A stretch of DNA of 47,892 nucleotides. Source: a virus. A program made the position numbers and the translations under genes. Positions 22,328 through 43,151 of the stretch are shown here, piece after piece (the first letter of the stretch is position 1; each line of letters begins with the position of its first letter). The notes under the pieces are model-generated. The model saw only the letters and a list, made by a program, of their open reading frames with translations, was not told where the DNA came from and searched no databases. The stretch covers positions 1-47,892 of the IMG/VR virus record IMGVR_UViG_3300045996_000711. One strand, given 5' to 3'.

Positions 22328-24492
22328 CAGCTATTTCTCCTAAGTGCGGTCCCTGATTTACGTCCTACATCGGCAGCAATCTGTTCTTGTGTGCGGGGAT
22401 CGATGTTGCCCCGCACAATGAAATTGTTCGTCTGGTTTACGCCTCCCATTCCTAGCGAATGATTAGGAATGATCGATCCCGACTTGGGAGCTACGAAAAG
22501 CTCTGGACCACGCTCTCCTACAAGATAAGGAACGCCCGCCATAACAGAACCGCCATTCGCTCGCGCGCCTCCAAATAGGGAGCCGAACAGGTTGGCTGCT
22601 GCGGCCATCCATCCGCCACCTTGAGCGCCTCCGGCTGAGCTTTCAGACTGACTAAAAGCACCCACAATCTGCTCAGCCCACTGGTCTGTAATAGCTTGTA
22701 AAATCTGCCGGCTTAATTCCTCAAAGAAGTCCTTAACAGCATCCTGTAGAGATTTGGTGCTGCTGATAGCGTCAAATAAGGAATCAGACAACGCACGCTG
22801 TGCGTCATTCCAGCCCTGAGCGGTTCTCGCGGCTTGTTCTTGAGCGGCTGCCAAGTCTTTTACCGTTTGAATTTCTTCCTCAGTCGCATCCGCGTTAAGG
22901 TAGCGAAGAGCAATAGCTTCATTACGCTTGGCGTTGGTCATACCCAGCAACTCAAGCTCAAACTCCATATCGGCGATGAACTCTTTGTTGGCCTTGGTAT
23001 TCTCGGCGAAGGCTTCCGACTCTCTTTTTACACGTTCATCTGCTGCTTCCTGAAGCTCGGCCAACCGTTCCTGAGTGTCTATCTGCTGGGCAAGTACAAG
23101 TAACTGATCCTTTTGTCCTTTAGCCAGATTCGCCAAGCTACCACTTTCCGTTTCATAACGAAGCTTAGCTTCCTCACCAGTCTTTCCGAATAGAGCAATC
23201 TGTTGCTCCATGGAAGCCGTCAGAGACTCATAGGTTTCTTTAAGGCGCGCGGCCTCTTTGTCGGCTTCTGACAATGCTTTGGATGCAGCCTTACCTGCCT
23301 TCTCGGACCCGGCTAGGAATTTATTTACGCTGGCTAGTAGTTGCGGGGAACTTCCGCCGGTCTCTGGCCTATTAGAGCCGCCGCGCGCGTTGGCAGCCCG
23401 ATTGCCTTGGACAGTAGCCGTAACGCCACTAAAGTCAGCTTGGTCACCAAAGGCATTGGAGAAAAACTGACGGATGCCATCGGCTTGGCGCTTGGCATTG
23501 TTAAAGAACCCGCTGAAATCTAGGTTCGCTAGCTTTGAGGCCATTTCGTATAGGGCAGTAAACGTCTGCGTCAGACCATCCATAGATCGCCTAAACGATG
23601 CCCCTACTTCGCTGCCGTCCTTGATCCAGCCCACTAAGCCGGATATAGCACTTGCGACTTCTTTAACGCTTACGCCGAACGCATTGCCTTCTTTCGCCGA
23701 CTCCCTGAACTCCTTTACCAGCTTGGTTAGCTCAGGGAGAAGTTCTTGGGCAAGCTGGGAAAATAGACCATTGACTGTCGCACGTAACTTAGCAAGTTCG
23801 TCATTGAAATCGTCAGCCGCTTTTGCCGTTTCATCACTGATTATCGCGGCAACCGATTCGGCCTCAGCTCCTAACTTGCTTAGTCCGTCGCTCCCATTTT
23901 CCAAGAACTCAATGAGTTCTGCGCCAGACCGACCAAATAGCTCCATGGCCAAAGCTGTCTCGGTCGTGTCGTTGTCAAGAGACTTGAAAGCGTCGGCTAC
24001 CTCGGGAAGCAACTCCTCTACGTCCCTCAGATTGCCTGAAGCATCCTTGATGCTAATTCCAAGAGCAGCAAATAGCTCTGATTGCCTAGAGCCGCTATCC
24101 GCAGCAGCCGCTACCGTCTTGCTGAACTTGCCAAGAGCACCCGTCAAGGACTCAAGATCGGTTCCCGATTGCTCGGCCGCATAACCCCATGCAGAAAGCT
24201 GCTCTGTCGATATGCCTAGCCGGACCGAGAACTCATTAAGCTTATCTGCCTTATTAACTGCATTCGTGAAACCTTGGAATGCAGCTTGGGCAGAAAGCAA
24301 TCCGCCAATCAGACCGCCTGTAAAAGCAGCTACGCTACCAAGCGCGCCCTTTAGTCCATTGCTAATTGACTTACTGATGTCCTTTGAACGCCTGTCTGCG
24401 AGGCGCGCGGCTTTGTCCATCCCTTGCTCGAAACCTGCTATTCGAGCGATGAGATCGACCGTCAGGCTGCCGATTGACCTGCTTCCTGCCAT
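22327..24492 (-). CDS. Tape measure protein
   Basis: About 721 aa from ATG 24492 (TAATG overlap with the GIY-YIG stop; RBS GGTGGG; alternative GTG at 24504). Long Ala/Leu/Glu-rich helical protein in the canonical position. Confidence 0.8.
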   Translation of the reverse strand: MAGSRSIGSLTVDLIARIAGFEQGMDKAARLADRRSKDISKSISNGLKGALGSVAAFTGGLIGGLLSAQAAFQGFTNAVNKADKLNEFSVRLGISTEQLSAWGYAAEQSGTDLESLTGALGKFSKTVAAAADSGSRQSELFAALGISIKDASGNLRDVEELLPEVADAFKSLDNDTTETALAMELFGRSGAELIEFLENGSDGLSKLGAEAESVAAIISDETAKAADDFNDELAKLRATVNGLFSQLAQELLPELTKLVKEFRESAKEGNAFGVSVKEVASAISGLVGWIKDGSEVGASFRRSMDGLTQTFTALYEMASKLANLDFSGFFNNAKRQADGIRQFFSNAFGDQADFSGVTATVQGNRAANARGGSNRPETGGSSPQLLASVNKFLAGSEKAGKAASKALSEADKEAARLKETYESLTASMEQQIALFGKTGEEAKLRYETESGSLANLAKGQKDQLLVLAQQIDTQERLAELQEAADERVKRESEAFAENTKANKEFIADMEFELELLGMTNAKRNEAIALRYLNADATEEEIQTVKDLAAAQEQAARTAQGWNDAQRALSDSLFDAISSTKSLQDAVKDFFEELSRQILQAITDQWAEQIVGAFSQSESSAGGAQGGGWMAAAANLFGSLFGGARANGGSVMAGVPYLVGERGPELFVAPKSGSIIPNHSLGMGGVNQTNNFIVRGNIDPRTQEQIAADVGRKSGTALRRNS

Positions 24493-25310
24493 TATTGAAC
24501 CCACCTGTATGTCTTACGGTTTACTATCTCAGATATAGAAGCAGGATCAATATCAAAAATCTTAGCAAGATCTATCTGTTTTTCACCACGCGAATATCGC
24601 ATGCGAATTTCAACAACTTGATTGTCAGAAAGTTTTGCTCTTGCCATCCCATTTTTTATGTTTCTTTCTGAAGAACAGATATATCCCGTCATTCTCTTAG
24701 ACGCAGCTTCTGAAAAGCCGGGAGGCATCTTTCTTCCTATTAGCTTAGCCCTGCGCTTCTCTATCGTTTCTTTGCTCTGCTTCTTTCCAGTCAAGGCTAA
24801 TGAGATTTTAGATCGTTGTTCCTTTGTAATGATTCTGCCTTTATGAGCTAAACCTATTTTATCGCGACGTTCCTGCGTCATTGGACCGCTGCCTTTACCC
24901 TTTCTGCTTTCGCTGATCTTAGCCAAAGTCTCAGGAGTGTGCTTGCGTCCTTTCATAGGTGAAAATCCATTACGAGCCCGTGCAGCCCTAAGCTTAGCGC
25001 GCGTCTCTTCTGAATGGCGGTAGCCTAGCTGTGAACCAGCAATAGGACTCGTGTTGTAGTCTGGCTTTAACCCATCAATCAACCTTTGCTCGTAAAATAG
25101 AATGTCGTCGCGAGAGCAATAAGCCACTACCGTGAATCTGAAGAACAAAGGACCGTACTTGTTCCAAGCTCGCTGGAGGAACCGACTATGATGCCTGTTT
25201 TCTATCAGACCTCGCTGATGTTCCTTCCATCGCTTTCTAAGCGTAACTGAACTACCGACGTAACGCCTGCCATTTGCAAGATTTTCAATTAGGTATACAC
25301 CAGTATCCAT
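24492..25310 (-). CDS. GIY-YIG homing endonuclease (I-TevI-like, NUMOD3 repeats plus C-terminal HTH)
   Basis: 272 aa. GVYLIENLANGRRYVGSS...RWKEH...N, repeated H(S/T)(E/P)ET..K(L/I) modules, and a C-terminal DLAKIFDIDPASISEIVNRKTY. Visibly more AT-rich than its flanks. Confidence 0.85.
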   Translation of the reverse strand: MDTGVYLIENLANGRRYVGSSVTLRKRWKEHQRGLIENRHHSRFLQRAWNKYGPLFFRFTVVAYCSRDDILFYEQRLIDGLKPDYNTSPIAGSQLGYRHSEETRAKLRAARARNGFSPMKGRKHTPETLAKISESRKGKGSGPMTQERRDKIGLAHKGRIITKEQRSKISLALTGKKQSKETIEKRRAKLIGRKMPPGFSEAASKRMTGYICSSERNIKNGMARAKLSDNQVVEIRMRYSRGEKQIDLAKIFDIDPASISEIVNRKTYRWVQ

Positions 25311-26011: not shown

Positions 26012-26488
26012 TTAGGTGGTCTTAGGCGTCATAGTCGGATCACCCGACACCTGAACGCCAACGGTCGCCGTAATCAGTGCATTTAGGCTGAAGTCGAAGG
26101 CGTATGAATTTACGAAGCCTTCAAACGAAACCCATGTACGAGTCGTCGGGAGGATAAATCCACACTCATCATCCGATTCTGTCTGCCCGGTCGGATCAAT
26201 ACCAATCCCATCGGGAAAACCAATCGTCCATTGCAAATTAGTGCCTGCCGATTTCAACTCAAGCAATCGGACGTGCGACGGGTCCTGTGGGTCAAGCGAC
26301 AATGCAAAGGACGCTGTGCCAGGAGTGGCTAGGCCCGCTTCATAGGTGCGGGCAGTCGATTCTAAGCAGGTTGTTTCAAGCTGCTCGATAGTAGAATCAA
26401 GCCCGGTGATGCTCGTCGGGCAGCCAACCTGCACAACGGAACAATCAGCCGGGTCCAAGAAATAAAGCTCGGTACCAGCAGTACGCAT
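26012..26488 (-). CDS. Major tail tube protein
   Basis: 158 aa in the canonical position upstream of the chaperones. Flanked by hairpin-rich intergenic regions. Confidence 0.65.
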   Translation of the reverse strand: MRTAGTELYFLDPADCSVVQVGCPTSITGLDSTIEQLETTCLESTARTYEAGLATPGTASFALSLDPQDPSHVRLLELKSAGTNLQWTIGFPDGIGIDPTGQTESDDECGFILPTTRTWVSFEGFVNSYAFDFSLNALITATVGVQVSGDPTMTPKTT

Positions 26489-26577: not shown

Positions 26578-26952
26578 CTAGCTAGACCTCTCGGTCCAAA
26601 ACTCTACAGTAAAACTGACGCGGTACAGGCCAGTGGCTTGCTCCCATTCCTCGCCATTATAGGAAACTATGTGGTTGAAAGTGGCTTCATAAGCGTCACG
26701 AAGTGCGTTGAAGACTTGCTGCGCTTGCGATGCCGTCTTGCCGTAGCAATCGAACTGGACGCCGGCTAGGTCTTCCTTGGGGATACAGGACAGAGAGTTG
26801 TCAGGGTTCCCATAAACCAACTGATGCACAGCGTAGGGGCGAACCTCATTCTGAGGAACGTGGCCGAAGGGCCACAGCCGAACCGGGGAGGTGCCGATGA
26901 CCGCCGTTACGGCTGAGTCTGCGGATGCGATCGGAAAGGCGGGATATGTCAC
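26578..26952 (-). CDS. DUF3168-like tail completion / head-tail joining protein
   Basis: 124 aa. IGTSPVRLWPFGHVPQNEVRPYAVHQLV....VQFDCYGKT fits the DUF3168 pattern. Confidence 0.6.
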   Translation of the reverse strand: MTYPAFPIASADSAVTAVIGTSPVRLWPFGHVPQNEVRPYAVHQLVYGNPDNSLSCIPKEDLAGVQFDCYGKTASQAQQVFNALRDAYEATFNHIVSYNGEEWEQATGLYRVSFTVEFWTERSS

Positions 26953-27419
26953 TTCGCCCCCAACTTCCTCAGCTCTTTGTCCATTTCTATGTTCATAGCA
27001 GCGACCGTTGCACTGATGGCTTTCTCGGCGCTAGATGAGGCAGCAGAACGGAGAAAAGGTCGAGCAGCAATCTTGCTCGTCCCCATTTCTAGGTATCGCC
27101 AATAGAAAGTATCGCCGCCAGGGGATGAAGGATCGCCGCCTGTAGACCGAGCTCCGCCTAGAACGCCAACGCGCATACCAACCCCGGCAGCCTGCCTCTC
27201 ACGCTTGCGGCCCATGCCCTGGGTGACGATGTTCTTCCAGATAGCCTCGCGGGTCAGGTTGTCGTCTAGGGCCTTAGCGTTAACCCGGGCTTGGTCACGG
27301 ATCACATTGGCACCCTTACGCAGCGCGCGGCGCATGGCATTTCGGCCGATCCGCTCTGGCAGGAGCTTCAGCTTGCGAACAATCTCATCTGCCCCTGTGA
27401 TGGAGGTTGTGACTTGCAT
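26949..27419 (-). CDS. HK97 gp10-family head-tail joining protein
   Basis: 156 aa. ITGADEIVRKLKLLPERIGRNAMRRALRKGANVIRDQARVNA is typical of the HK97-gp10 family. Confidence 0.7.
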   Translation of the reverse strand: MQVTTSITGADEIVRKLKLLPERIGRNAMRRALRKGANVIRDQARVNAKALDDNLTREAIWKNIVTQGMGRKRERQAAGVGMRVGVLGGARSTGGDPSSPGGDTFYWRYLEMGTSKIAARPFLRSAASSSAEKAISATVAAMNIEMDKELRKLGAK

Positions 27420-28084
27420 TAGCCAACCGTCTCCAAAAGCCTACGCTCATGGTGCCATAAATCGGCGTAGGGCGCATCATGGTAGGCGGGGAAGGCAGGC
27501 GTTCCGGCGGTGTGGTGGATGAGCTTGGCGCCCTCTCCGGGCTGGCCTTCGTCTACAAGTCGATTCCACTCGTCGGGCAGCCAGCCGATTTCAGCGGTCC
27601 AGCGGAACTCAAGAAGATCGCGGGTTGGCATAGTCGCCAGGGTTTCAGGGGTGAAAGCCTGCCAGTCGGGATGCTCGCAATTCGCTATGAACAGGCTTGC
27701 CCAGTTTTTCCTCGGATAATCCATGTTCGGGCATTCCATCGAGGTTCCCCGGTACTTGGTACGGTGCCGGGTCTTGTAATCGGGGTGTTTGACTACCTGT
27801 ACCGCGTATTCAGGATTAACTAGACTGTCAAGTTCAGTAATGTCCCCCAGCATGAGCATGTCGGAGGCGTCGCAGAAGATCGCATGGCCCTTAAACCCAC
27901 ACAGCCAAGGGACTAAAAACCTCGAAACAGTGAAGGAGTTAGAGCCTTCTGGAAGGCCCATGGACGAGAGCGGTATGAACTCTACGGGGCGCGATGCACG
28001 TCGGATCACGGAATGGCAGAAGACGCTGTAGCCGATGGCCTCGCGCTCATCCCATCCCGCAAATACCTTAATTGGCCGCGACAT
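27419..28084 (-). CDS. GT-A fold glycosyltransferase (GT8-like, DXD)
   Basis: 221 aa. FTVSRFLVPWLCGFKGHAIFCDASDMLMLGDITEL matches the GT8 pattern Y.R..iP.l......lylD.D.iv..di.eL. TAATG overlap with the gp10-like start. Confidence 0.55.
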   Translation of the reverse strand: MSRPIKVFAGWDEREAIGYSVFCHSVIRRASRPVEFIPLSSMGLPEGSNSFTVSRFLVPWLCGFKGHAIFCDASDMLMLGDITELDSLVNPEYAVQVVKHPDYKTRHRTKYRGTSMECPNMDYPRKNWASLFIANCEHPDWQAFTPETLATMPTRDLLEFRWTAEIGWLPDEWNRLVDEGQPGEGAKLIHHTAGTPAFPAYHDAPYADLWHHERRLLETVG

Positions 28085-28598
28085 TCGGCTTCACAGCCTC
28101 CATCCTAAAATCCCGCCTTTCACGTCCCACAGGATGGAATTCAGTCTTCTTCTCAACCAACTTAATGAAACCTGCTTCTTTAACTAGTGGTGATAAGCTA
28201 TTGAAATGCCAAGACCATTTGTGGATCATCAGCGGATCTTTTAGACGGCTATCTCCGAAAATCCCCCACATGCCAGCTTGGTCAGGATGTTTGCCGGCGT
28301 AGGTGTAACCTTCAACGATATTCTTCGCGCATTTCAGGATATCGGGCATCTCCATAACTAACCTTCCTCCTGGCTTGAGTAGTCGGAACCACTCTTTCAG
28401 AAGGCCACAGACTTCCCAGTGATGGACATGTTCAACTACATGAATTGCTATGATTTCATCCACGCTATTATCTGGCAGCGGAATGTTGTCAGCGGGAGCC
28501 ACAATATCGGCAGCAGGACGCGGGACTACATCAACCCCGGTATATCCTGGAAGCCGGCGACCTCCGCACCCCACATTAAGCTTCAGCGGTTCTTTCAT
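28068..28598 (-). CDS. Class I SAM-dependent methyltransferase
   Basis: 176 aa from ATG 28598 (ATGA overlap). Motif I LNVGCGG, DNSVDEIIAIHVVEHV, and LLKPGGRLVMEMPD. Confidence 0.75.
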   Translation of the reverse strand: MKEPLKLNVGCGGRRLPGYTGVDVVPRPAADIVAPADNIPLPDNSVDEIIAIHVVEHVHHWEVCGLLKEWFRLLKPGGRLVMEMPDILKCAKNIVEGYTYAGKHPDQAGMWGIFGDSRLKDPLMIHKWSWHFNSLSPLVKEAGFIKLVEKKTEFHPVGRERRDFRMEAVKPNVAAN

Positions 28599-29308
28599 AT
28601 CCTCGCCTCTATGAATATCCAAGCCTGCTCGGCTTCCTCGGCCTTCCACTGCCACCAAGCTAGCCGCCTGAGAAAGTCTAGCCTGTTTTCGGTCGTAAAG
28701 GGCTTATCCCGGAGCCAGAGAGCAGCCCCATCCGAGCATTCAAAGGGTACCCCGGCAATGATGGCGTCGATAGCGCAGTTGCTATGGCGGCAGACCAAGA
28801 GGGAGGCGCCTTTGAGGAAGGATTCAATGGGTCGCTTGTCCTGCTTGGCCTTAAGAATCGAGCCGGGATACCGCCGCCTCATCTTGGCCTCCCAATTTTG
28901 GAGATTGAGGAACCGCTTGGACTTCTCGCCCATGCCGGCCACGATTACCCTTCCCTTGGGCCTGTAGTCCTCACGCAGTCCAACCCCAAAAGCTTCCCAG
29001 CGAGTAGGGTCCGATGAAGTCCCCTCAATCAGTTCAGGGCTAGCGTGCCATCGATCCAGGCTAAGGCGGCAGTACCCATCGTGCTTCCCGAAATACCCCA
29101 AGTCCCACAGGATGGCACGCCCCCCGGCTTCCACATGCTGGCTAACGACTGCCGCATGGTCGGGCCGGCCATAACCCCAAAGCATCAATAGACTCTCCGA
29201 ACCCGTGTACTGGCTAACGATCCGGCAATCTCGCTGGCCTGCCATGGCCTCTAGAATCTTATGAGCGCGCCTTGAGTCGCGGTTATCTAGAAGCACCTCA
29301 CAGCCCAC
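28595..29308 (-). CDS. Putative glycosyltransferase-like protein, paralog A (Capsule_synth/KpsS-like?)
   Basis: 237 aa (GTG start uncertain). RVIVAGMGEKS...SLLVCRHSNCAIDAIIAGVPFEC...FLRRLAWWQWKAEEAEQAW parallels 30615..31334. Confidence 0.35.
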   Translation of the reverse strand: MGCEVLLDNRDSRRAHKILEAMAGQRDCRIVSQYTGSESLLMLWGYGRPDHAAVVSQHVEAGGRAILWDLGYFGKHDGYCRLSLDRWHASPELIEGTSSDPTRWEAFGVGLREDYRPKGRVIVAGMGEKSKRFLNLQNWEAKMRRRYPGSILKAKQDKRPIESFLKGASLLVCRHSNCAIDAIIAGVPFECSDGAALWLRDKPFTTENRLDFLRRLAWWQWKAEEAEQAWIFIEARI

Positions 29309-30122
29309 GTAGGAAATCCTTCAGCATCACTGCTGCATGTTCCACGGGAAACCTTTTCTGAATGAACCTGTCGCTGATAGTCTCACGCGCGCCCTGATCC
29401 ACCAACCAATCAAACGACATAGCGAGTTGGGCGGGCGTCTCGGCCCAATATTCAGCGCCGCTGGCGTTCTCTAGATATCCCGTTTCCGGACTTCCAACAA
29501 AAGGGGTTCCGCTGGCGTGGGCGTTCTGAAGCTTAATTGCCGATTTCCAGTGCCGCCCTACGTAACCGGGGTTGTCCCGGAAGGCCACGACGATATCTAG
29601 GTCAGAAAGGCTGCTTGGATTCACCACGAACTCACAGCCTCGTTTTTTGCACTCTTCGTTGACCATATCCGTCCACTTGCCGAGATAGGCGGGGGAACCT
29701 TCATAGCCCACCTTGCTGACCTTCTCGCGGATAGGGTTGGCTTTTATCCCGATTCGGTGATGATGAGGCAACACCAGTCCCGGAAGACCAGTATCGCAGT
29801 CATCCCGCATCCGCTGATTCGGCCAGATGATGGCGGTCGCTGATAGAGCCTTGATCTTGGATCGGACCCAAGCTACCGCGTCAGCCTTATCCCAGCGGTA
29901 GGCCACCGGTTGCGGAAACGCGTCTACGATGTCCCAAGCCCATTTACGGCCATTGAGCTTGGCGATTACCTCAGGCGGCGTACGCTTTACGACTACGGTC
30001 ACATCATGGTCAGTCGGGCCGGTCATGGGCTTTATATCGGCACCAAGGGCCGCGCCGAGTTGTTCCCCACGCATTTGCCAGCTACCTGACTTTCCGCCCT
30101 TCCCGGTCACCAGTATTTTCAT
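29298..30122 (-). CDS. Putative GT-B fold glycosyltransferase
   Basis: 274 aa. MKILVTGKGGKSGSWQMRGEQLGAALG looks like a Rossmann N-terminus. C-terminal HWKSAIKLQNAHASGTPFVGSPETGY resembles the GT-B donor-binding helix. Confidence 0.4.
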   Translation of the reverse strand: MKILVTGKGGKSGSWQMRGEQLGAALGADIKPMTGPTDHDVTVVVKRTPPEVIAKLNGRKWAWDIVDAFPQPVAYRWDKADAVAWVRSKIKALSATAIIWPNQRMRDDCDTGLPGLVLPHHHRIGIKANPIREKVSKVGYEGSPAYLGKWTDMVNEECKKRGCEFVVNPSSLSDLDIVVAFRDNPGYVGRHWKSAIKLQNAHASGTPFVGSPETGYLENASGAEYWAETPAQLAMSFDWLVDQGARETISDRFIQKRFPVEHAAVMLKDFLRGL

Positions 30123-30655
30123 TTTCGCCCAAACCCCACCACTTCTGAACGAATGATATAGGGGAACCCGTCTTTCTTCACTATCGGTATTTTCGGGCCT
30201 TCATAAAGTTCATCGGCACATATCGCCATAGCTTGCCATGCGATATCGGGGAAAAGGGATCGGACCCCGGCCGGAGTCATGCGCCAATAGTCATCGGGAT
30301 AGGCATGAATACGCCACGCAAAAGGAACCGCCAAGAATAGAGTCCCATTCGGCTCAAGCATTTGTTCAAGATTCTCCGCCAATAGCCACGGTCGGCGGGA
30401 ATGTTCTAGAACGCTCAGGCATTCAATGTGGCTGAAAGTCCCTAAGTCATTAGGCTCTTCCAAATTGCATACGACATCCACACCTTCGCCCTCTACCATG
30501 TCTACCCCCAGCACGGATTTAAACAGGGGCCGTCGATCTACGCGGCCCCGGTACACACGGGAGCCAACAATAAGCGTGCGGCCTTCTTTTGGCCTTACGT
30601 GATCGGCCTGAAATCTATCTAAGGAGGACATGGGCAAAGGCTTCACCGCTCTCAA
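30119..30655 (-). CDS. Class I SAM-dependent methyltransferase (second copy, divergent)
   Basis: 178 aa. TLIVGSRVY..., GVDVVCNLEE, FSHIECLSVLEHSRRPW, MLEPNGTLFLAVPF. Confidence 0.55.
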   Translation of the reverse strand: MRAVKPLPMSSLDRFQADHVRPKEGRTLIVGSRVYRGRVDRRPLFKSVLGVDMVEGEGVDVVCNLEEPNDLGTFSHIECLSVLEHSRRPWLLAENLEQMLEPNGTLFLAVPFAWRIHAYPDDYWRMTPAGVRSLFPDIAWQAMAICADELYEGPKIPIVKKDGFPYIIRSEVVGFGRK

Positions 30656-31334
30656 TCTCCTTGATTTGCCACTGCGCCCACGCCAAGCGGCGGAACATCT
30701 CTATCCGCCCTTCAGGGGTATTGTCCTGTTCGGCGACCCAATGCGGCATTTCAGACACGACAGGAATCCCCCACATCAGCGCCTTGACCGCACTTCCACT
30801 ACCCCAAGTCACAGTCCGTCCAGCATGCGCCAAATCCTGTTCCAGCGGCTTGCAGACCTTGGTGCCGGGGTGTGGCCGGATACGACCACCGTAGCGCCTG
30901 AGAGCGTCCTGGGGCCAGCCTGACGGCATTCTTGTAGGGGGCGACCCTATCCCGCGCTGGGGTAGTATGACCGTCTCGCCGGACTCTCTAAATGGAGCCA
31001 GATCTACACCTAGCGAATCCCATCTTTCATTACCACCAACCGGGAACCGGGCCGCCGTGTTGTGGTAGTACATCGCCAGTGAGTACCAGCGCCGACCTAA
31101 GAAATCATTCCCCCAAGCGGCGTTCTCGGCCACGATGACCGGCAAACAACGATCTTGGAAGCGCTGGGCGACTGTGTTTCCGGCGTTAATTCTTCCCCAC
31201 GTGATGAAACAGTCGCGCTCGCCGATTCGGTCGGGAAGACCAATCTCTGCCCTATATCCCAGCCGCTCAATGCCAGATACGAAGGCTCTCAGCCTTTCTG
31301 GCACTGTATAACGCAAGTTGAGCCATGCTCTCAT
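30615..31334 (-). CDS. Putative glycosyltransferase-like protein, paralog B
   Basis: 239 aa. ETVILPQRGIGS...RTVTWGSGSAVKALMWGIPVVSE...MFRRLAWAQWQIKEIESGEAF. Confidence 0.35.
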   Translation of the reverse strand: MRAWLNLRYTVPERLRAFVSGIERLGYRAEIGLPDRIGERDCFITWGRINAGNTVAQRFQDRCLPVIVAENAAWGNDFLGRRWYSLAMYYHNTAARFPVGGNERWDSLGVDLAPFRESGETVILPQRGIGSPPTRMPSGWPQDALRRYGGRIRPHPGTKVCKPLEQDLAHAGRTVTWGSGSAVKALMWGIPVVSEMPHWVAEQDNTPEGRIEMFRRLAWAQWQIKEIESGEAFAHVLLR

Positions 31335-31528
31335 TCCAGCGTTGCCGCTTTGCCTACTTCAAAACCGACGCTATAGGCATGATTTAATAAGTTGCAAATC
31401 TTTTCTATATTTTCAATATCTCTTCCGCTCATCATGGGGATATCCCCTTGGGCGAAGATAAAATGTTTCGCAAATGGACCAATTCCGCGACTTATAACAT
31501 AGAACTCATCATGAGATTCGCTAGCCAT
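31331..31528 (-). CDS. Hypothetical protein (65 aa) within the transferase cassette
   Basis: ATGA-coupled ORF. Locally AT-rich. Confidence 0.45.
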   Translation of the reverse strand: MASESHDEFYVISRGIGPFAKHFIFAQGDIPMMSGRDIENIEKICNLLNHAYSVGFEVGKAATLE

Positions 31529-31716
31529 TACCCTACTACCTTTACATCCTTGCTTCCGGTATAGCCGAGCTGCCTTTGTTTGGAAGCCTTGGCTTCTTCA
31601 AGAGTTGCGTAATTGGAAACCCAGTGCCATTCCGTAGGAAAAATCCAGAACTGTACAATACGTACCTGAAGCATATATCCGGGTTCAACCTGAATTATCC
31701 TAAATTCTTTCTTCAT
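31528..31716 (-). CDS. Hypothetical protein (62 aa) within the transferase cassette
   Basis: Overlap-coupled ORF. Locally AT-rich. Confidence 0.45.
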   Translation of the reverse strand: MKKEFRIIQVEPGYMLQVRIVQFWIFPTEWHWVSNYATLEEAKASKQRQLGYTGSKDVKVVG

Positions 31717-32224
31717 CTAACACATCCTCCAATCTCGCCATTGGGAAACACGTAAGTGCTGAATTTTTAGTGCAATTTACGACTCGAATACCCTTGTTCG
31801 ACCGTGCCCACTGCTCATACTGCTTCATATGGTTGGCCCGCTGCAATGGGGTCGTATTGCGCAGGCCGTTGGTGTACTTGCCGAAGAAGTGGCTGCCCTT
31901 CATGTCGAAGCCTAGAAGTAGGATTTCCGTAGCCCCGAGCATCTTGGCACATTCCAAAGCCAGTACACCCGAGTTACAGACCGAACCCAGCATGGGCAAA
32001 CTTACCTTCTCCGTCTGATTAAACGCAGACATTGAGAATTTCCGGCCATTCAACTTCAAGGCGTCCGGATGTTTCATCCACCAAGACCGGTCAGAGGCGG
32101 CAATGAAGTCAGCCCAGGGGGCTAGCTGAAAGGCGTTACCGATGACGCCTAGAGGAATGTCCCTGGCCTTTTCCGCCTGTTCAGCAGAGGCAGACGGACC
32201 CGGCGCGAGTAACGCCCACTTCAT
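31700..32224 (-). CDS. DUF115/MptE-like (Maf-type) putative glycosyltransferase
   Basis: 174 aa. LLAPGPS...VIGNAF...PDF..A.D...then CNSGVLALECAKMLGATEILLLGFDM matches the DUF115 core (GPS, NSG..A...A..LG...I.L.G.D). Confidence 0.4.
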   Translation of the reverse strand: MKWALLAPGPSASAEQAEKARDIPLGVIGNAFQLAPWADFIAASDRSWWMKHPDALKLNGRKFSMSAFNQTEKVSLPMLGSVCNSGVLALECAKMLGATEILLLGFDMKGSHFFGKYTNGLRNTTPLQRANHMKQYEQWARSNKGIRVVNCTKNSALTCFPMARLEDVLDEERI

Positions 32225-32565
32225 TGGTCAAGCCGTACGCCCTCAGCCACGGCCAGTGTCAGATGCTCCGTGCCTGATTCATTGTCTGGCATTGCTCCGA
32301 GAATACCAAACCATTTGCCACGGTGAACAACTCTCATGGTGGCATCTATGCCTTCTCGGTAGCGAATCTGCATATACCCACGTACTTCGGATTGCTCAGC
32401 ACTAGCGGCTACAAATTCACGAACAGACTGATAGTTTACGTCGGTCCATTGCTCGGAAAAAATTACCCACGACGTTTCAATTTCGCCCGTAACGGGATTT
32501 TGAGTCTCAATAGGGCGCTCAATCCGAGTCCACTTGTTGAGATTCCCAGCAGCGACCGCAGGCAT
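32221..32565 (-). CDS. Head closure / head-tail adaptor protein (SPP1 gp16 / HK97 gp9-like)
   Basis: 114 aa. LNKWTRIERPIETQNPVTGEIETSWVIFSEQWTDVNYQSVREFVAASAEQSEVRGYMQIRY is typical of this family. Confidence 0.7.
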   Translation of the reverse strand: MPAVAAGNLNKWTRIERPIETQNPVTGEIETSWVIFSEQWTDVNYQSVREFVAASAEQSEVRGYMQIRYREGIDATMRVVHRGKWFGILGAMPDNESGTEHLTLAVAEGVRLDQ

Positions 32566-32967
32566 CTAAGCCACCGTACTTTTGCGTAGGCCAGCCAATA
32601 GGGCCGTAGATGTTTTATTGAGGATATAGCCGTACCCAGCATCCGGGGGCACTACGTTGTCTTTTCCTTCGCCTTCACGGAAGCGATAGACAGAACCCAA
32701 TTCAAGCAGCACAGCCGCCTTCACAACCGGTCGGGTAGTCAGAGGAATGGCCGGGATAGGATCGCCGCCAGAATCCAGTAGTGGAATACCAGCCGAATCC
32801 AATTCCGGTACGTATAGGCGAGATTCTACTTTCAGCCACAGCGAGACGGCTTCCGAGATAGCCGGAATAAAGATAGCCAGCCAAGAGTCATCCGCGCCGC
32901 CGCCGCTGTCGTAATCCAGCCTCAGATGCTCGCGGGCTTCCTCCATGGTGACAAGGTCAGTTGCCAT
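32566..32967 (-). CDS. gp6-like head-tail connector protein
   Basis: 133 aa. TMEEAREHLRLDYDSGGGADDSWLAIFIPAISEAVSLWL is typical of the family. Confidence 0.7.
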   Translation of the reverse strand: MATDLVTMEEAREHLRLDYDSGGGADDSWLAIFIPAISEAVSLWLKVESRLYVPELDSAGIPLLDSGGDPIPAIPLTTRPVVKAAVLLELGSVYRFREGEGKDNVVPPDAGYGYILNKTSTALLAGLRKSTVA

Positions 32968-33853
32968 GGAGCTTCACCGGCTCGGGTGGCTTGGCGTCGG
33001 TCTTGTCCTGGCCGTCCCGTCCCTTACGGGCGGCAAGCTGCCAGTCTTGGCAATCGTACGCAGGAAATTCACTGGTGTCCTTGGTGCAAATCCAGAGAGA
33101 CCCGTGCGCAGTCGTGGTATTACCTGCCTGGGCTTTCATTCCCTGGCGCCAGAAACCAATATGTTTCATGACGTTCAGCGGGAAGCGCTGGGTTAGCGAC
33201 TTCTCCCCGCGCTTGTACTCATGCACGATGGCTTCGCCGTCGAACGAAACAGTAAGTTCATCGAAACCTAGCCCGTCTTTACCGTCCTCGCCGCGCTGGC
33301 CGTCTTTGCCGACAACTTGCCCCAACTCTTTGATGGTGCCGTTGCTCAGAGTCAGTAAGAGATTCCCTTCCCGGTCGATCATGGCCCCGGCCACGCCTGC
33401 ACCGTCTTGGCCTTTCTCCCCCACAACCGGATTATTGTTCATGTATTTGGCAACCTGAGCCGCAACCATGTCATCGGAAACAGGCTCAGCGTCTTTACCG
33501 TCCTTGGGTGGATTAGCCGCAAGATATGCAGCGACAGAATCAGCAGCTTGCAAATCCACCAAGGCTACCAACCCATCACTAGCGAGAAGTTCAGCAGCTA
33601 CATCGGACACCAAAATAGGTTCCGCGTCTTTCCCATCTTTGGGCGGATTGGCTTCTAGTGCTTTCTTTACCTCAGAGGCAGCATGGTTTGCCAACACATC
33701 AGACTGCAGTACCTCGGCCACAATATCGGCCGCTATGGGAATCTGCTTGGATTCCAGCGCTTCCAGCTTGGCAAGGATAGGTGCCAACGCCTTGTTCAGA
33801 TGCGCCTCCATCGCCTTGAATACGCCGTCTGCGACCTTCTCAACGTCCATCAT
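32957..33853 (-). CDS. Repeat-containing virion-associated protein with collagen-like G-X-Y tracts
   Basis: 298 aa. Two ~40-aa repeats end in ANPPKDGKDAEP. GEKGQDGAGVAG and GKDGQRGEDGKDG triplets. ATGA overlap with the portal stop. Confidence 0.45.
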   Translation of the reverse strand: MMDVEKVADGVFKAMEAHLNKALAPILAKLEALESKQIPIAADIVAEVLQSDVLANHAASEVKKALEANPPKDGKDAEPILVSDVAAELLASDGLVALVDLQAADSVAAYLAANPPKDGKDAEPVSDDMVAAQVAKYMNNNPVVGEKGQDGAGVAGAMIDREGNLLLTLSNGTIKELGQVVGKDGQRGEDGKDGLGFDELTVSFDGEAIVHEYKRGEKSLTQRFPLNVMKHIGFWRQGMKAQAGNTTTAHGSLWICTKDTSEFPAYDCQDWQLAARKGRDGQDKTDAKPPEPVKLHGN

Positions 33854-35217
33854 GCCTCCGCAAACCGCTTTTCAATGGCCGCCAGAAAGGCGCGGGCTTG
33901 TTCTTCAGGGTCTTCCTCGACAACTTCCACGACCGGTGCAGGCTCGGGCTCCGCAGGAGTGGCAGGCTGAGCCGTGTTCTTAGCCGCTTCCGCAAGTGGC
34001 AAGTCCTGAAGTTGCTTGTAGACAGTATAGCCGCCTTCAAGCGGCGGCAAATTGAACTGGCGGCGCCCTTCGTTCGGCGTAGAAATACCATCCTTGCCCA
34101 GTTGGCCCCACACAGTTGCTCTCTTTTGCGGGTCCATACGAAGGAGCGGACCGGTATCCATTTCCAGTCCGAGCGGACGACTAATCGCCAACCCTTCTTC
34201 CAGCAGATTCTCTCGGGAGTCAATCAAGGGCTGAAGCGCCAAACGCTCATACATCCCCATCATGTCGTCCACTTTCATTCCGGCTGGGATTTGGCCGATG
34301 CCTACAATGAAAGGCGGTACGCCAAAAGGCTGGCAAATCTGCTCGTCGGAATATCGTAGCTGTTCAACCAACTGTGAATCTGCTGACTTGAAAGCAAAGC
34401 TGGTGAATTTCAGGTCGGCGCCAATGACCGCGACTTTTCCGCTATTGCTGCCTTGGAAGTTGGTATTCCAGTAGGTCTTAACGTCTTCTGCATCCTGCTG
34501 AGACATGCCCGCAGGCGCGGTCAGGATACCGCCCGGGTTGGCTCCATTGGCAAAGAACGAAGCCGCGTTCTTCAGAATTTTGAGGTTCTTGACCACCGGC
34601 CAATAGGCGGCGCACAGAGGCGGCACGCCGATAAGCTGATGGTGAAAAGTATTAAGACGGTCGTGAATAATATCCCGCGCGGGCACAATGATCTGTTCGC
34701 CGGGGTATCCGTTCGGCAGGAGATTGTCGGCAGTCGGGTAACTCAACTGGTAGAACACGTCTCCCGAATCGGACACCATGGGCAGCACACGGCAGGGATC
34801 AAGCACATACAGACGATCCACGACGCCACGGTTGTCACGACCTTTTAGAACGTACGTGTTGCCATGCAGCAAAATAGAGAGCGTCCAAGCTTCGTGAAAC
34901 TGCTGGGCGTTCTGGTAATGGTTGGGTTTCCGTAGAACCGGGCTGTACGCCGGGTTATCGACGTTGTGCCAAATGCCGTTCGCGTCTTCCTGCTGAAGCA
35001 GCATAGGAAGCGTACCCATATCCCGAGAGATACGGTTTAGGCACGCATAGAGCGTCGGGTAACACAGGATATCGGCCCGCTTCTCTTCGGCATTTTGCTG
35101 CCAAGCGCCCGGGAACGGCTCAAGTACTCGGCTACCCCAACCCCACCCACCTCGCCAATCGGCCACAGGAGTTAGCTGCTTCTCAGCCTTCGTAAGCTCC
35201 CAGCCGAAAATGCGCAT
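33850..35217 (-). CDS. Portal protein, HK97 family
   Basis: 455 aa from ATG 35217. LHGNTYVLKGRDNRGVVDRLYVLDP, IIHDRLNTFHHQLIGVPPL, ICQPFGVPPFIVG. Confidence 0.85.
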   Translation of the reverse strand: MRIFGWELTKAEKQLTPVADWRGGWGWGSRVLEPFPGAWQQNAEEKRADILCYPTLYACLNRISRDMGTLPMLLQQEDANGIWHNVDNPAYSPVLRKPNHYQNAQQFHEAWTLSILLHGNTYVLKGRDNRGVVDRLYVLDPCRVLPMVSDSGDVFYQLSYPTADNLLPNGYPGEQIIVPARDIIHDRLNTFHHQLIGVPPLCAAYWPVVKNLKILKNAASFFANGANPGGILTAPAGMSQQDAEDVKTYWNTNFQGSNSGKVAVIGADLKFTSFAFKSADSQLVEQLRYSDEQICQPFGVPPFIVGIGQIPAGMKVDDMMGMYERLALQPLIDSRENLLEEGLAISRPLGLEMDTGPLLRMDPQKRATVWGQLGKDGISTPNEGRRQFNLPPLEGGYTVYKQLQDLPLAEAAKNTAQPATPAEPEPAPVVEVVEEDPEEQARAFLAAIEKRFAEA

Positions 35218-35218
35218 C

Positions 35219-35515
35219 TTAGGCCTGCGCCTCACGCAGCGCCGCTTTGACCTTTTCCGCGCCCGCGCGGTGATGAACTTCCACGCCACGCTCTTTCGCC
35301 AGCGCGTGCAGTTCCTCGACCGTTAGGGAATCCAAACTGTCATAAACCTTGGTAGTGGGTGTTTCGGTAACTAATACGCGGGTCGGATAGGATTCCTCTG
35401 CCACCAGCATACGGTTGCGCAGGACACGAGCGACTGCCTCGTTCGTGCGCATGATGCGACCATTCTTGAGTCGGACTTCAACTTTCATCGGGACTCCATA
35501 GAAGGAGGAGGCCAT
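35219..35515 (-). CDS. Hypothetical protein (98 aa) with a Rho_N/SAP-like C-terminal motif
   Basis: ATG at 35515 after AAGGGAGGAGG. C-terminus LTVEELHALAKERGVEV. Confidence 0.5.
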   Translation of the reverse strand: MASSFYGVPMKVEVRLKNGRIMRTNEAVARVLRNRMLVAEESYPTRVLVTETPTTKVYDSLDSLTVEELHALAKERGVEVHHRAGAEKVKAALREAQA

Positions 35516-35535
35516 TAAGACCTCCTCCCTTAGTT

Positions 35536-36969
35536 TCAGCAGGTGGTAGGCATACCGTCGATCCACTGGATAGCGCCGCTTCGACGCGGACCCCACCAGA
35601 TAAAGCGTTCTGCTCTCAGCGCGATGCTGTTAGTCTGCCACATGCTCACGAACGGCGAGCCGTTGGAAGTCACCGTCGCCGAGCTGGAACCCACCGGGGT
35701 ATCGCTCATTTCGATAGTGGCTTGGTCGCTCCAATCCAACGTAACGGAACCGTCGTCAGCCAGCCAGATTTCCGACTCATCCACGAGGATGAAGGGAGCG
35801 CCGCCCGAACCGCCGTTCTGCGCAAGGTACTGCGAGACACGGACCGGAACGCCCATCAGAGTACCGCCCTGCGGCGTCATGCCCGGGAAGGCCACATTAC
35901 CCAACGGATCGATAGCGAAGGCCAGCATGCGAGCGACCGCAGGCGTGGTGTAATACGCCGGACGGGAACCCAGGTTGGTCGAATCCCACGGCTCCCACAG
36001 GGCCGCAATAGCACAACGAACGGAGGCCGGATCGGAATAATCAATGGCACCCACCACGGTCGGAGCAACGCCATTCAACAGGCCGGCCGGCGACACATTG
36101 GCAACCGCAGCCAAATCCGGGTCCATCAGATCATTGTCAATGCGAGCAATGACCGTATCGGCCAGCGAGTCACGCACCAGAGCTTCCGCAGACGGATCAG
36201 AGAAGCGGGCCAATTCCTGCGTCAACACCGAAATAGCGGCCACCTTGGTGAACGGAATGGTCGTGGCGTTGAAATCGAACTTGGTTACCGGCTTGGACTT
36301 ACCCTGACCTACCCAACTTGCCGAGCCGCCCGAAGTTTGGCCGTTAATACGGACATTGAACGGAACAGCGCGGAACTGAGCCTGCCCGATCAAGGTACGC
36401 GGACGCAGGAACTCGATGAAGTCGCCGCCAAAGGTATTGGCATAGACCAGCGGAGCTGCCCAGGTGGAATCGGTCGTGGTACCGGCCGGAACCGTCGCCT
36501 TGATCTGGAACATTTCAGCCAGATTCGCGCCTTCGGCCTGAGCTTTCAGGGTCTTGACGATGGATTCGGTCTTGGGGAAGTGCTTCTCAGCTAGCTTGTA
36601 GGCGGTTTCATGGTTGCCCTTCGCCTTCATCAAGCACATGGCGTAGCGGGCAAAAGCAATGCCCGGGTCAAGCTTCTCGGTTTCTTTCAGCACGATGTCC
36701 GAGCGCTGCAAATGGGAAACCTGGTTGTCTTTAGTTTCCACGGGAACCGCATTCTTAGCGGCCATCGCTTCCAGCTCGGTGTAAGTGGCGATGTCCCGGT
36801 CAAGCTGAGAAACCTCACCGCGAAGGGTCTTCACCTCTTCGGATTCAGCCTCGTTCATCGAACGATTCTCGTCCATCGCCGCCTTAGAGACGGTTTCAAT
36901 CTTGGAAAAAGTAGCGTCACGCGTGGCCTTAAGGCCAATCAGGTGTTCGCCATAGGTCTTACCGCTCAT
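35536..36969 (-). CDS. Major capsid protein, HK97 fold, with N-terminal delta (scaffold) domain
   Basis: 477 aa. N-terminal coiled coil of ~100 aa, then an HK97-type body. Directly downstream of the prohead protease. Confidence 0.85.
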   Translation of the reverse strand: MSGKTYGEHLIGLKATRDATFSKIETVSKAAMDENRSMNEAESEEVKTLRGEVSQLDRDIATYTELEAMAAKNAVPVETKDNQVSHLQRSDIVLKETEKLDPGIAFARYAMCLMKAKGNHETAYKLAEKHFPKTESIVKTLKAQAEGANLAEMFQIKATVPAGTTTDSTWAAPLVYANTFGGDFIEFLRPRTLIGQAQFRAVPFNVRINGQTSGGSASWVGQGKSKPVTKFDFNATTIPFTKVAAISVLTQELARFSDPSAEALVRDSLADTVIARIDNDLMDPDLAAVANVSPAGLLNGVAPTVVGAIDYSDPASVRCAIAALWEPWDSTNLGSRPAYYTTPAVARMLAFAIDPLGNVAFPGMTPQGGTLMGVPVRVSQYLAQNGGSGGAPFILVDESEIWLADDGSVTLDWSDQATIEMSDTPVGSSSATVTSNGSPFVSMWQTNSIALRAERFIWWGPRRSGAIQWIDGMPTTC

Positions 36970-37092
36970 TGCCGTATTCCTTCTTTGTGGGATAAGTCGC
37001 TATCGCAGCGAGTTTTGCGGCCTTGCGGCCTCTACAGCAAAGAGAGGCAATATCCGCTAAAAGTGGCCGGAGTCTCACCGGCCTGACCATCT

Positions 37093-37701
37093 TCAGGGTC
37101 TAGCAACGTCTCGCGACGTGACCAAACGAACAGAACCATCTGAACGCTTCTCGCGCTCAGACATAATCCGCACTAACGGGATGCCGCCATTAACTAGCTG
37201 AGGGCGAACGCCCAATGCAGACCGAATCATAGCAGGATCGCAGGACTTAAAAGCAGTAACAACCGCTTCCGGATTCGCTGGCACACCCACTAACGACAAC
37301 TCCAACATTTCCCACTTCTTGAACAGATAGCCGCCAGTCTTCATTATCTCGGCACCGCCCTCAAGCACCTTAAACCCGATGGAAACGGCGTCAAGGAGTC
37401 GGTATTTCAAGGAATGAAGGGCTTCGTTAACCCGGTCTTGGACGATTCCCGGCTCACTGATCTCCGGGATAGTGGCCTCAAAGGGAAGACCCGCGCGAGT
37501 CGCCTTGCCGAAAGTGACGTGACCTACCGGCATATCGTGCTTATGGTATAGGTGGAGTTTGACCGGGGCGCGGAATACGACGCCAGCCGGGTCAACCGAG
37601 TCGCCCACTCGATCTAGGGTCGGAGTAGTCGCAATGCCCCGAACGATACGGGCACTATCGTCAACCGATTTGACCTCTAGTAGACTCCAAGCCCTGTTCA
37701 T
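37093..37701 (-). CDS. Prohead maturation protease, HK97 family (S78)
   Basis: 202 aa. IVRGIATTPTLDRVGDSVDPAGVVF...LHLYHKHDMPVG...LELSLVGVPANPEA. Confidence 0.8.
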   Translation of the reverse strand: MNRAWSLLEVKSVDDSARIVRGIATTPTLDRVGDSVDPAGVVFRAPVKLHLYHKHDMPVGHVTFGKATRAGLPFEATIPEISEPGIVQDRVNEALHSLKYRLLDAVSIGFKVLEGGAEIMKTGGYLFKKWEMLELSLVGVPANPEAVVTAFKSCDPAMIRSALGVRPQLVNGGIPLVRIMSEREKRSDGSVRLVTSRDVARP

Positions 37702-40237: not shown

Positions 40238-40568
40238 GGTTCACCTTGGTCTCATCAACAGGGGTCGCCCCCAACTTGGAAAGGATCGCACTCAGGCTGT
40301 TTATAGCAGAAATAGCCAGCGGCTTACCCTCGTCCATCTTAGCCACAATCTGGCTTGCCAGCCTCAGCAATACCCGATGACCGCTATGCAACCAAGGCAT
40401 GTCCCCGGCCATATCCGACCATGCCGCCTTCTCTCCTTCAGTCATGGCCGCATAGGGCTTGCCAAGCGGTCTCGGCTTGGGACCCTTCCGATTCCTAAAG
40501 CGCTGGGGATCGTGCTGGGCTGCGCCAGATGCAATGGCTTTATCCAGTGGCACTCGTGGTCTTGGCAT
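40179..40568 (-). CDS. terS: Terminase small subunit, P27 family
   Basis: 129 aa. LHSGHRVLLRLASQIVAKMDEGKPLAISAINSLSAILSKLGATPVDETKV is typical of the P27 family. Confidence 0.7.
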   Translation of the reverse strand: MPRPRVPLDKAIASGAAQHDPQRFRNRKGPKPRPLGKPYAAMTEGEKAAWSDMAGDMPWLHSGHRVLLRLASQIVAKMDEGKPLAISAINSLSAILSKLGATPVDETKVNHAGDGDEDPDDRFFGGKPN

Positions 40569-43097: not shown

Positions 43098-43151
43098 ACT
43101 TCATACTCGCCGTTGTTTACACCTAAGAACGCAGACTGTAACCGAAACCGG

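Follow-up and report, generated by a model that had tools for sequence, protein, structure and literature searches.

A candidate glycosylation and methylation cassette coupled to the head-tail joining genes of phages of Gram-negative bacteria

What does a phage gain from placing a set of sugar-transferring and methyl-transferring enzymes among the genes that join its head to its tail? This question is raised by IMG/VR virus record IMGVR_UViG_3300045996_000711, whose 47,892 nucleotides (the window, meaning the whole stretch of DNA analysed here) carry nine minus-strand open reading frames (ORFs) at 27419-32224, between a head completion/closure gene and a gene for an HK97 gp10-like tail component. 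Seven of the nine ORFs encode predicted enzymes, namely a Maf/GT42-like protein, two proteins of the KpsC/WbbB fold, a GT8 glycosyltransferase of the GT-A type, a compact GT4-like glycosyltransferase of the GT-B type, and two class I S-adenosylmethionine (SAM)-dependent methyltransferases (MTs). To the reading that this set carries out late, host-donor-dependent glycosylation and methylation of a virion component, an interpretation guided by analogy with mycobacteriophages, we give roughly even chances.

The two ends of the window share an exact 127-bp direct repeat (positions 1-127 and 47766-47892); the window is, therefore, a complete, circularly closed phage genome of ~47.77 kb. The nine co-directional ORFs, already described in a sequence-only reading of the window, are all present, and both flanking genes were identified by Pfam—the head completion/closure gene upstream (32221..32565; Phage_HCP, 1.2e-20) and the HK97 gp10-like gene downstream (26949..27419; HK97-gp10_like, 7.5e-7), both, like the cassette genes, on the minus strand. 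In the direction of transcription, the ORFs encode the Maf-like protein c1, two small proteins (w62 and w65), the KpsC-fold protein A, MT2, GT-B, B (the paralogue of A), MT1, and GT8. ATGA overlaps connect the head-closure gene with the first ORF, w65 with A, MT2 with GT-B and B with MT1, TAATG overlaps connect w62 with w65 and GT8 with the gp10-like gene, and the remaining junctions are overlaps of 11-41 nt. That every junction overlaps, as had been claimed, is true except possibly for GT-B/B, where the choice of the GTG start decides between an 11-nt overlap and a 1-nt spacer. Neither a sigma-70-like promoter nor a terminator-like site was detected on the cassette's coding strand, the counts being lower than in shuffled sequence. 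With coupling at both flanks and no internal promoter or terminator signal, the proposed translation within the late structural operon is upheld; the cassette shares its transcript with the head-tail joining genes and is coupled to them in translation. All nine proteins lack transmembrane segments (no hydrophobic 19-mer above 1.6 on the Kyte-Doolittle scale), and several are basic, with isoelectric points (pI) of 8.4-9.5.

A search with the A family yielded 80 loci from IMG/VR and 8 loci from GTDB genomes, which were annotated with the window's own proteins. Counted over the 52 loci that contain both flanks, and with A as the query, A and GT8 are present in all 52, the Maf-like protein in 51, B in 49, GT-B in 38, MT1 in 35, and MT2 in 14. 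The Maf-like protein, A, B, and GT8 form a nearly universal core quartet, to which GT-B, MT1, and MT2 are accessory additions. The cassettes keep a nearly constant gene order. Forty of the 52 are situated between the head-closure gene and the gp10 or tail-completion gene, and the rest are found elsewhere in the head module, after the gene for the major capsid protein (MCP) or the portal. A further set of phages has the cassette behind the MCP gene and ahead of the adaptors, and its head-closure and gp10 genes are adjacent (e.g., L003); they are also directly adjacent in L090, a more distant relative that has no cassette. Both arrangements agree with the earlier expectation that these two genes are normally neighbours. 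The cassette of a prophage of Dokdonella sp. MW10 (L085/L092; CP197094, ~2.72-2.74 Mb) lies between MCP and adaptor. This prophage, which provides a culturable host for the full cassette, encodes two proteins between head-closure and gp10, a collagen-like one of 159 aa and another of 255 aa.

The cassette moves, yet always within morphogenesis modules. Because of its spread across the 52 loci, together with the versions found in Caulobacter phages and in the Pseudomonas phages D3 and PAJU2 (see below), it is regarded as an old feature of phage morphogenesis modules, modular and built on four core genes; the idea of a recent nine-gene insertion does not survive this comparison. The named hosts of related prophages and contigs of metagenome-assembled genomes all belong to the Pseudomonadota (Dokdonella, Haliea, Gallionella, Variovorax, Pseudomonadales). 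Mean identity within the cassette protein families is only 31-66%, and active-site-type residues are conserved nonetheless, which argues that the cassette proteins are functional enzymes. At the DNA level, a search of 50,697 phage records with the region and 24 kb around it returned nothing beyond 78 bp in the tail terminator gene of a Stenotrophomonas phage.

The two small ORFs are real, but they are not part of the conserved cassette, in which the sequence-only reading had counted them. Neither w62 (62 aa; 31528..31716) nor w65 (65 aa; 31331..31528) has a Pfam, PHROG, or NCBIfam match. Among the 88 related loci, w62 has no homologue and w65 a single one, in L005. Since they are GC-poor (0.43 for w62 and 0.41 for w65, against 0.53 for the genome) and essentially without homologues, they look like a small segment that was recently inserted between the Maf-like gene and gene A.

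The Maf-like protein c1 (174 aa; 31700..32224) is a minimal Maf_flag10 (PF01973/DUF115)/GT42 sialyltransferase-like protein. It matches phrog_4603 (“alpha-2,3-sialyltransferase”) at 6.8e-34. The DUF115/Maf-like assignment made at first sight finds support in the family, of which 15 out of 30 members match PF01973 at E 0.1 or better (best 1.2e-5), but the window protein alone reaches only E 0.11 (12.7 bits, below the cut-off of 34.6). Searched against the PDB, the family profile matched as its only glycosyltransferases the Campylobacter GT42 sialyltransferases Cst-II and Cst-I and another lipooligosaccharide (LOS) sialyltransferase, at weak E values of 0.07-0.9. Residues S85-G86, G105, and D107 of c1 are invariant or nearly so and align with the “TSG...LSGIDF” segment of Cst-II; the donor-site motif SG...G.D is common to the c1 family and Cst-II, and conservation in the c1 family extends to SG...G.D..G.H. 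[quoted passage not shown] Judged from its motifs, c1 is proposed to be a CMP-ulosonic-acid transferase and possibly the initiating enzyme of the pathway. The Maf-like gene on its own is still more widespread in morphogenesis modules, with homologues in D3 (orf7), PAJU2 (ORF010), P1-like phages (PmgO), and Klebsiella phage Eowyn. Otherwise, the homologue searches with c1 and with GT-B led only to unnamed, Pfam-less metagenomic proteins, the sole exception being one Dokdonella prophage protein.

The two KpsC-fold proteins, A (c4; 239 aa; 30615..31334) and B (c7; 237 aa; 28595..29308), were originally seen as KpsS-like paralogues. They are clearly paralogous (BLASTP 1e-13; hhalign 99.8%, E 1.6e-28, over the full length), and neither has a match in Pfam (including Capsule_synth), NCBIfam, or PHROG. 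The AlphaFold2 (AF2) model of A (pLDDT 95.9) resembles the KpsC/WbbB/KrkA-type glycosyltransferases, since the top 14 Foldseek matches in the PDB are all retaining beta-Kdo transferases (KpsC, KrkA, WbbB), with probabilities of 0.99-1.0, E values of 9e-5 to 1.7e-3, and TMq of 0.42-0.54. Matches of A in BFVD include giant-virus proteins, among them a “capsule polysaccharide biosynthesis protein” of Tetraselmis virus at 5e-10. An exhaustive search places A in a family that numbers 1615 representatives when clustered at 50%, and for the close homologues listed there is no Pfam family on record. A profile of close relatives of A found nothing in the PDB, and the broad profile gave E. coli KpsC as its top match, at a marginal E of 0.026.

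At the residue level, A combines familiar with unfamiliar features. R153-P-H155-P156 corresponds to the (K/R)XHP CMP-binding motif; it is invariant in close relatives and conserved at ≥90% in the broad alignment. E70 and S179 are likewise invariant, S179 being at the position of the phosphate-binding Ser. In the marginal profile match to KpsC (E 0.026), E70-N71 aligns with “RLEDG” of that enzyme, with a one-residue numbering offset to the published general base Glu66 and with an N-domain stretch that, taken alone, is not significant. Where the motif QXXXD is expected, A reads Q126-R-G-I-G130. The Gln of the motif is usually kept, R127 and G130 are invariant in 59 sequences of 31-54% identity, and the invariant Gly takes the place of the nucleophilic Asp, an equivalence drawn from topology and spacing rather than from residue-level structural superposition. 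In the characterised enzymes, this Asp is D160 of KpsC, D232 of WbbB, and D193 of KrkA (PMC12887879, PMC10148158). B has KAKQDK where A has the HP motif and GMGEK at the QXXXD position, and conserves residues of its own, D69-G-Y, H175-S-N, and D181. A and B are, thus, predicted to have the Kdo-transferase fold and A, in addition, the CMP site of sialyl/Kdo transferases; neither is a canonical member of these families, and to this extent the first assignment has to be revised.

GT8 (c9; 221 aa; 27419..28084) is a GT8-type enzyme of the GT-A class with a DxxD motif (FCDASD) and a match to phrog_28018 at 9e-30. The window protein itself has no Pfam match; Glyco_transf_8 (PF01501) is matched by 11 of 35 members of its family (best 4.9e-9), D72xxD75 and the C-terminal H190..G194.P196 are invariant, and phage homologues are annotated as nucleotide-diphospho-sugar transferases. 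The GT8-like call with its DXD motif is confirmed by these data, even though the family profile found nothing in the PDB. The GT-B-like protein (c6; 274 aa; 29298..30122), a compact, GT4-like accessory enzyme without a Pfam match, had also been recognised, and its fold is confirmed by AF2 (pLDDT 96.2) and Foldseek. Foldseek returned 128 PDB hits for its model at E 1e-3 or below; each of the 50 best, as listed, is a GT-B enzyme, MshA and BshA among them, and the best are SenB, SdgB, GtfC/Gtf3, and TreT at E ~1e-7 and TMq 0.6-0.7. A tblastn search of the 50,697 phage records with the GT-B protein gave no match.

As for the two class I methyltransferases, MT1 (c8; 176 aa; 28068..28598 from an ATG, the ORF list extending it to 28658) is secure, with a Methyltransf_11 match at 1.5e-10 (42 bits, above the cut-off of 21.2) and motif I LNVGCGG. 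Its best NCBIfam resemblance is to the mycofactocin oligosaccharide methyltransferase MftM (1e-5, far below the cut-off), and its sequence indicates the small-molecule/sugar O-methyltransferase type. MT2 (c5; 178 aa; 30119..30655, with a start perhaps at the ATG at 30631) is a divergent, class I methyltransferase-like protein; it stays below threshold against Methyltransf_23 (4.5e-4, 20.4 bits, cut-off 27) and has an atypical motif I (TLIVGS), and its place in the class is backed by the hhalign match to the MT1 family (probability 92.7%). Both are accessory. Single-sequence PDB searches of four cassette proteins yielded only noise. Taken as a whole, the enzyme inventory of the sequence-only reading stands.

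How could these enzymes work together? By virtue of the coupling to the head-tail joining genes, soluble enzymes would be made in the cytoplasm exactly as virion proteins accumulate. The Maf_flag10/GT42-like enzyme and A would take a host CMP-sugar, most plausibly CMP-Kdo, GT8 and, where present, GT-B would add hexoses from host uridine diphosphate (UDP)-sugars, B might extend the glycan or serve as a scaffold, and one or two SAM-dependent methyltransferases would cap it. During assembly, the product would be joined to some part of the virion, be it capsid, tail tube, or a fibre or decoration protein. Donor sugars, reaction order and, above all, the acceptor are what we infer in this scheme. 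CMP-Kdo would be the most economical donor, because two or three enzymes of the core quartet resemble users of CMP-ulosonic acids and all hosts are Gram-negative. CMP-Kdo is made by every Gram-negative host; as all named hosts are Pseudomonadota, it would always be available.

Pfam analysis of ~75 candidate ORFs of the closed genome found no nucleotide-sugar synthesis genes, no C5-MT, TET/5mYOX, ThyA-like hydroxymethylase, or other nucleotide-metabolism genes and, in the same genome, no Gtr, flippase, or polymerase families and no genes for membrane-anchored transferases, so that the absences remarked on in the sequence-only reading hold for the whole closed genome. A virion modification is favoured because genes for donor synthesis, for DNA-base modification and of the Gtr type are missing, the enzymes are soluble and wired to structural genes, and the Cluster O mycobacteriophages offer a precedent. 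Compared with the sequence-only reading, the proposal of virion glycosylation is strengthened by this precedent and by the lineage-wide placement in morphogenesis modules, but its acceptor is as conjectural as before. The most specific form of the proposal, in which these phages build a methylated, Kdo-containing glycan directly on virion proteins from the CMP-Kdo and UDP-sugar pools of the host, appears unlikely to us. If true, phages of Gram-negative bacteria would have their first virion-glycosylation system, protein O-Kdo glycosylation would have a natural instance, and the A proteins would constitute a new glycosyltransferase family in which the double-displacement mechanism of related enzymes has been given up.

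Several observations weigh against a glycosylated virion. No acceptor was identified: when the C-termini of MCP, tail tube, gp10, tail-completion protein, head-closure protein, and p298 (a 298-aa collagen-like protein encoded between portal and head-tail adaptor) were compared across the loci, no Ser/Thr-rich tail or motif was common to the structural proteins of all cassette-bearing phages. The absence of p298 from D3 and from arrangements of the L003/L085 type led to its rejection as an obligate acceptor. The enzyme types present are all typical also of the assembly of lipopolysaccharide (LPS), LOS, and capsule. With A devoid of the nucleophilic Asp of the retaining Kdo transferases and B devoid of the HP motif, the donor assignment is weak; furthermore, the fold match of A is moderate (TMq ~0.5) and its sequence-level support marginal (E 0.026). 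Finally, ORF010 of PAJU2, a homologue of the Maf-like protein, carries the unconfirmed GenBank label “structural protein”; if this label rests on virion proteomics, the Maf-like protein is more than a transient cytoplasmic enzyme. As a separate observation, the C-terminus of the MCP (35536-36969, minus strand) is strongly conserved in the lineage of the window as ...QWIDG(F/M)P(T/S)(S/A/T)C with a terminal Cys; a universal sequon at this position was rejected, given that other cassette-bearing lineages, PAJU2, and D3 end differently.

Three other explanations for the cassette deserve to be weighed. Late in infection, the enzymes might act at the inner membrane, on its cytoplasmic face, to remodel a host envelope glycoconjugate (LPS/LOS core, capsule linker, or flagellin). 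Masking or destruction of the receptor could then keep progeny from being lost on debris, or competing phages could be excluded. KpsC/KpsS, GT8 (WaaO/WaaJ-type), GT4, and Cst-II-type proteins are, indeed, classic enzymes of LPS, LOS, and capsule; D3 is a seroconverting phage, though via a separate operon, related elements reside as prophages in Dokdonella and other genomes, and Maf enzymes act on flagellin (bioRxiv 10.1101/2020.06.03.131540). We nevertheless consider this explanation unlikely, and the earlier case against seroconversion reasonable. The coupling to head-tail joining genes, without a promoter or terminator of its own, would leave the cassette silent in lysogens and active only minutes before lysis. 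A membrane anchor, flippase, polymerase, and Gtr components are lacking, as are the membrane-anchoring C-terminal regions of the KpsC type from the 237-239 aa proteins, and in more than 50 loci the cassette was never met in a moron-like or lysogeny-module position. A second target could be the phage DNA itself, glycosylated and methylated to a hypermodified base before or during packaging and thereby evading restriction. Attachment of Kdo, heptose, and multi-sugar glycans to 5-hydroxymethylcytosine by phage glycosyltransferases is documented (bioRxiv 10.1101/2023.12.21.572611). A post-replicative modification would be consistent with expression next to the packaging and head genes, and the basic pI of several cassette proteins fits as well. 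Yet, the closed genome has no C5-cytosine MT, 5mYOX/TET, thymidylate-synthase-like hydroxymethylase, or other nucleotide-metabolism gene from which such a base could arise, and the cassette methyltransferases are of the Methyltransf_11/23 type, not DNA methyltransferases. Known DNA glycosyltransferases resemble the T4 beta-GT or JGT folds, unlike the Maf, KpsC, and GT8 folds found here; a weak additional argument is that the contig assembled normally from shotgun data. DNA hypermodification, which had reasonably been doubted from the outset, is considered very improbable.

It is also conceivable that there is no virion-directed pathway at all: some of the proteins, B and the Maf-like protein in particular, could have lost catalysis and serve in morphogenesis or be associated with the virion, as derivatives of glycosyltransferase folds, or the set could make a soluble or lipid-linked product for another role. 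PAJU2 ORF010 is annotated as “structural protein” and the P1 homologue PmgO as having a “putative morphogenetic function”, both on an unconfirmed basis, and degeneration is seen in B (no nucleotide-binding HP motif), A (no family nucleophile), and MT2 (motif I). Against this stand the “Pmg” names being positional guesses, the co-occurrence of four to seven enzyme-like genes in nearly fixed order, as is typical of a pathway, and the strict conservation of DxxD and H in GT8, of RxHP, E70, and S179 in A, of SG...G.D..G.H in the Maf-like protein, and of motif I in MT1. In sum, a non-catalytic or otherwise unrelated role is judged quite unlikely.

If glycosylation of a virion component by the cassette is borne out, its implications would reach beyond this lineage. 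To date, the phages shown to have glycosylated virions are mycobacteriophages, in which the modification reportedly weakens the neutralising-antibody response (PMC11600133, PMC12619734). The phages at issue here take in relatives of the P. aeruginosa phages D3 and PAJU2, Caulobacter jumbo phages, and prophages of Dokdonella and Variovorax. A widespread proteobacterial counterpart would make glycan coats a general phage strategy, and such a coat would bear on immunogenicity in phage therapy, on virion stability, and on adhesion in soil and water. Family A is of interest in its own right, as an unannotated family that joins the CMP motif of sialyl/Kdo transferases with loss of the catalytic Asp. 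Importantly, the question is testable in cultured phages and by co-expression in E. coli.

The surroundings of the cassette are those of a tailed phage with a single long morphogenesis module, which runs on the minus strand from ~40.2 kb to 15.6 kb. It comprises, in order, TerL, a GIY-YIG homing endonuclease, an S78 prohead protease, the HK97-fold MCP, a 125-aa protein, portal, p298, head-tail adaptor, head-closure protein, the nine ORFs, and the HK97 gp10-like protein, followed by a gp17-like tail-completion protein, a lambda-type tail tube (26012-26488), chaperones, a second GIY-YIG gene, the tape measure, and distal tail parts of the gene transfer agent (GTA) type (DUF2460, a phiJL001 gp84-like hub, NlpC/P60, and an Rcc01698-like host-specificity protein). 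The order of the head genes at 33850-38360 (minus strand), with prohead protease and MCP ahead of the portal, is unusual and is kept across the lineage and in Pseudomonas phage PAJU2. The protein p298 (32957-33853, minus strand) contains repeated ANPPKDGKDAEP units and short runs of collagen-like G-X-Y, and its C-terminal domain is conserved; in C-terminal parts, the protein matches phrog_1289/2271, annotated as “portal protein”, and it has a homologue in PAJU2 (ORF007). It may be a head or neck fibre and, speculatively, a glycosylation target. Three genes of the homing-endonuclease type break up the packaging and structural module (37698-38360, 24492-25310, and 40673-41491, minus strand), two of them GIY-YIG, one of these with NUMOD3, and one HNH.

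Downstream of the GTA-type host-specificity protein, at 15595-17030 (minus strand), a DUF2793 protein and a Laminin_G_3 (ConA-like lectin) protein are encoded, which are likely tail-fibre or receptor-binding proteins. Outside the structural module, one small ORF is hit by the Pfam family RMF (ribosome modulation factor; 3.2e-5). Weakly similar to the E. coli protein, the 60-aa ORF at 413-595 (minus strand) is probably the one concerned, and a phage-encoded RMF-like protein would be unusual. The regions 1-17000 and 40179-47862 contain lambdoid-type accessory genes (RecT, DUF1351, NinB, Lar, RecA-dependent nuclease, SPFH/Band-7, and N-acetylmuramidase). No integrase or repressor was detected by Pfam, at E 1e-3 or better, in the rest of the genome.

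On the level of single enzymes, the cassette draws on known families and departs from each of them. With the Maf flagellin transferases and the GT42 enzyme Cst-II, c1 shares the PF01973/Maf_flag10-type core and the SG...G.D donor-site motif. Maf proteins, however, possess N- and C-terminal domains, whereas the 174-aa c1 is the core domain alone; it falls below the PF01973 threshold and is not linked to flagellar or nonulosonic-acid biosynthesis genes, of which the genome has none. With the retaining beta-Kdo transferases KpsC/KpsS (GT107), WbbB (GT99), and KrkA (GT140), A has in common the modified GT-B-like fold of two Rossmann domains, the (K/R)XHP motif, the Gln that starts QXXXD, and the phosphate-binding Ser; an invariant N-domain Glu of A aligns with KpsC in the marginal profile match. 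The modules of those enzymes measure 320-390 aa, while A and B have ~240 aa and no membrane-anchoring region, and where the former carry the nucleophilic Asp of QXXXD, A has an invariant Gly (QRGIG); B, moreover, is without the HP motif.

On the level of gene sets, the closest counterparts occur in other phages. The Caulobacter phages CcrBL9, CcrSC, CcrColossus, and CcrPW, jumbo phages with alphaproteobacterial hosts, contain a syntenic six-gene block of 25-36% identity, which encodes a sialyltransferase-like, an A-like, a B-like, and a GT-A-like protein, a methyltransferase, and one more protein. It likewise belongs to the late region and adjoins virion genes but is placed after the tail-fibre genes and before the endolysin rather than in the head-tail joining module. 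PAJU2 is of the same structural lineage as the window (portal 2e-189; p298, connector, head-closure, gp10, and tail tube also match) and carries at the same head-closure/gp10 junction a Maf-like gene, then a 275-aa gene (phrog_6804), then a Methyltransf_23 gene. This three-gene triad, situated in the head-tail joining module of both P. aeruginosa D3 (orf7/orf12/orf13; L100, AF165214.2 5951-9143) and PAJU2 (ORF010-012; L101, AP009624.1 7780-9723), lacks the KpsC-fold, GT8, and GT-B genes of the window cassette. The middle gene (D3 orf12/PAJU2 ORF011) was considered as a divergent A, B, GT8, or GT-B and rejected (hhalign <3%). The triad of Maf-like, phrog_6804, and methyltransferase genes is also present in the Klebsiella jumbo phage Eowyn.

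The closest precedent is that of the Cluster O (Corndog-type) mycobacteriophages, which encode an O-methyltransferase and three glycosyltransferases inside their structural operon (PMC4351075), enzymes that are reported to modify capsid and tail tube (PMC11600133, PMC12619734). As in the window, the virion structural operon harbours a methyltransferase gene together with several glycosyltransferase genes, and donor-synthesis genes are lacking. In Cluster O, the enzymes themselves were not found in virions and modification of the virion is reported; for the window cassette, such modification is a proposal. There is no detectable sequence relationship between the two systems, since tblastn with four cassette proteins against the 50,697 phage records found no actinophage; the hosts of the cassette-bearing phages are Gram-negative, and the position, at the head-closure/gp10 junction, is a different one. 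No description of this cassette was found in the literature searched, in agreement with the sequence-only reading. What is new here is an enzyme set unrelated to the mycobacteriophage one, its occurrence in phages of Gram-negative hosts, and a large unannotated family without the nucleophile of its relatives. By analogy, the cassette is most likely the Gram-negative analogue of the Cluster O system; its enzymes—Maf/GT42-like, two KpsC-fold proteins, GT8, and a compact GT-B—set it apart from that system and point to a chemistry that is probably based on ulosonic acids.

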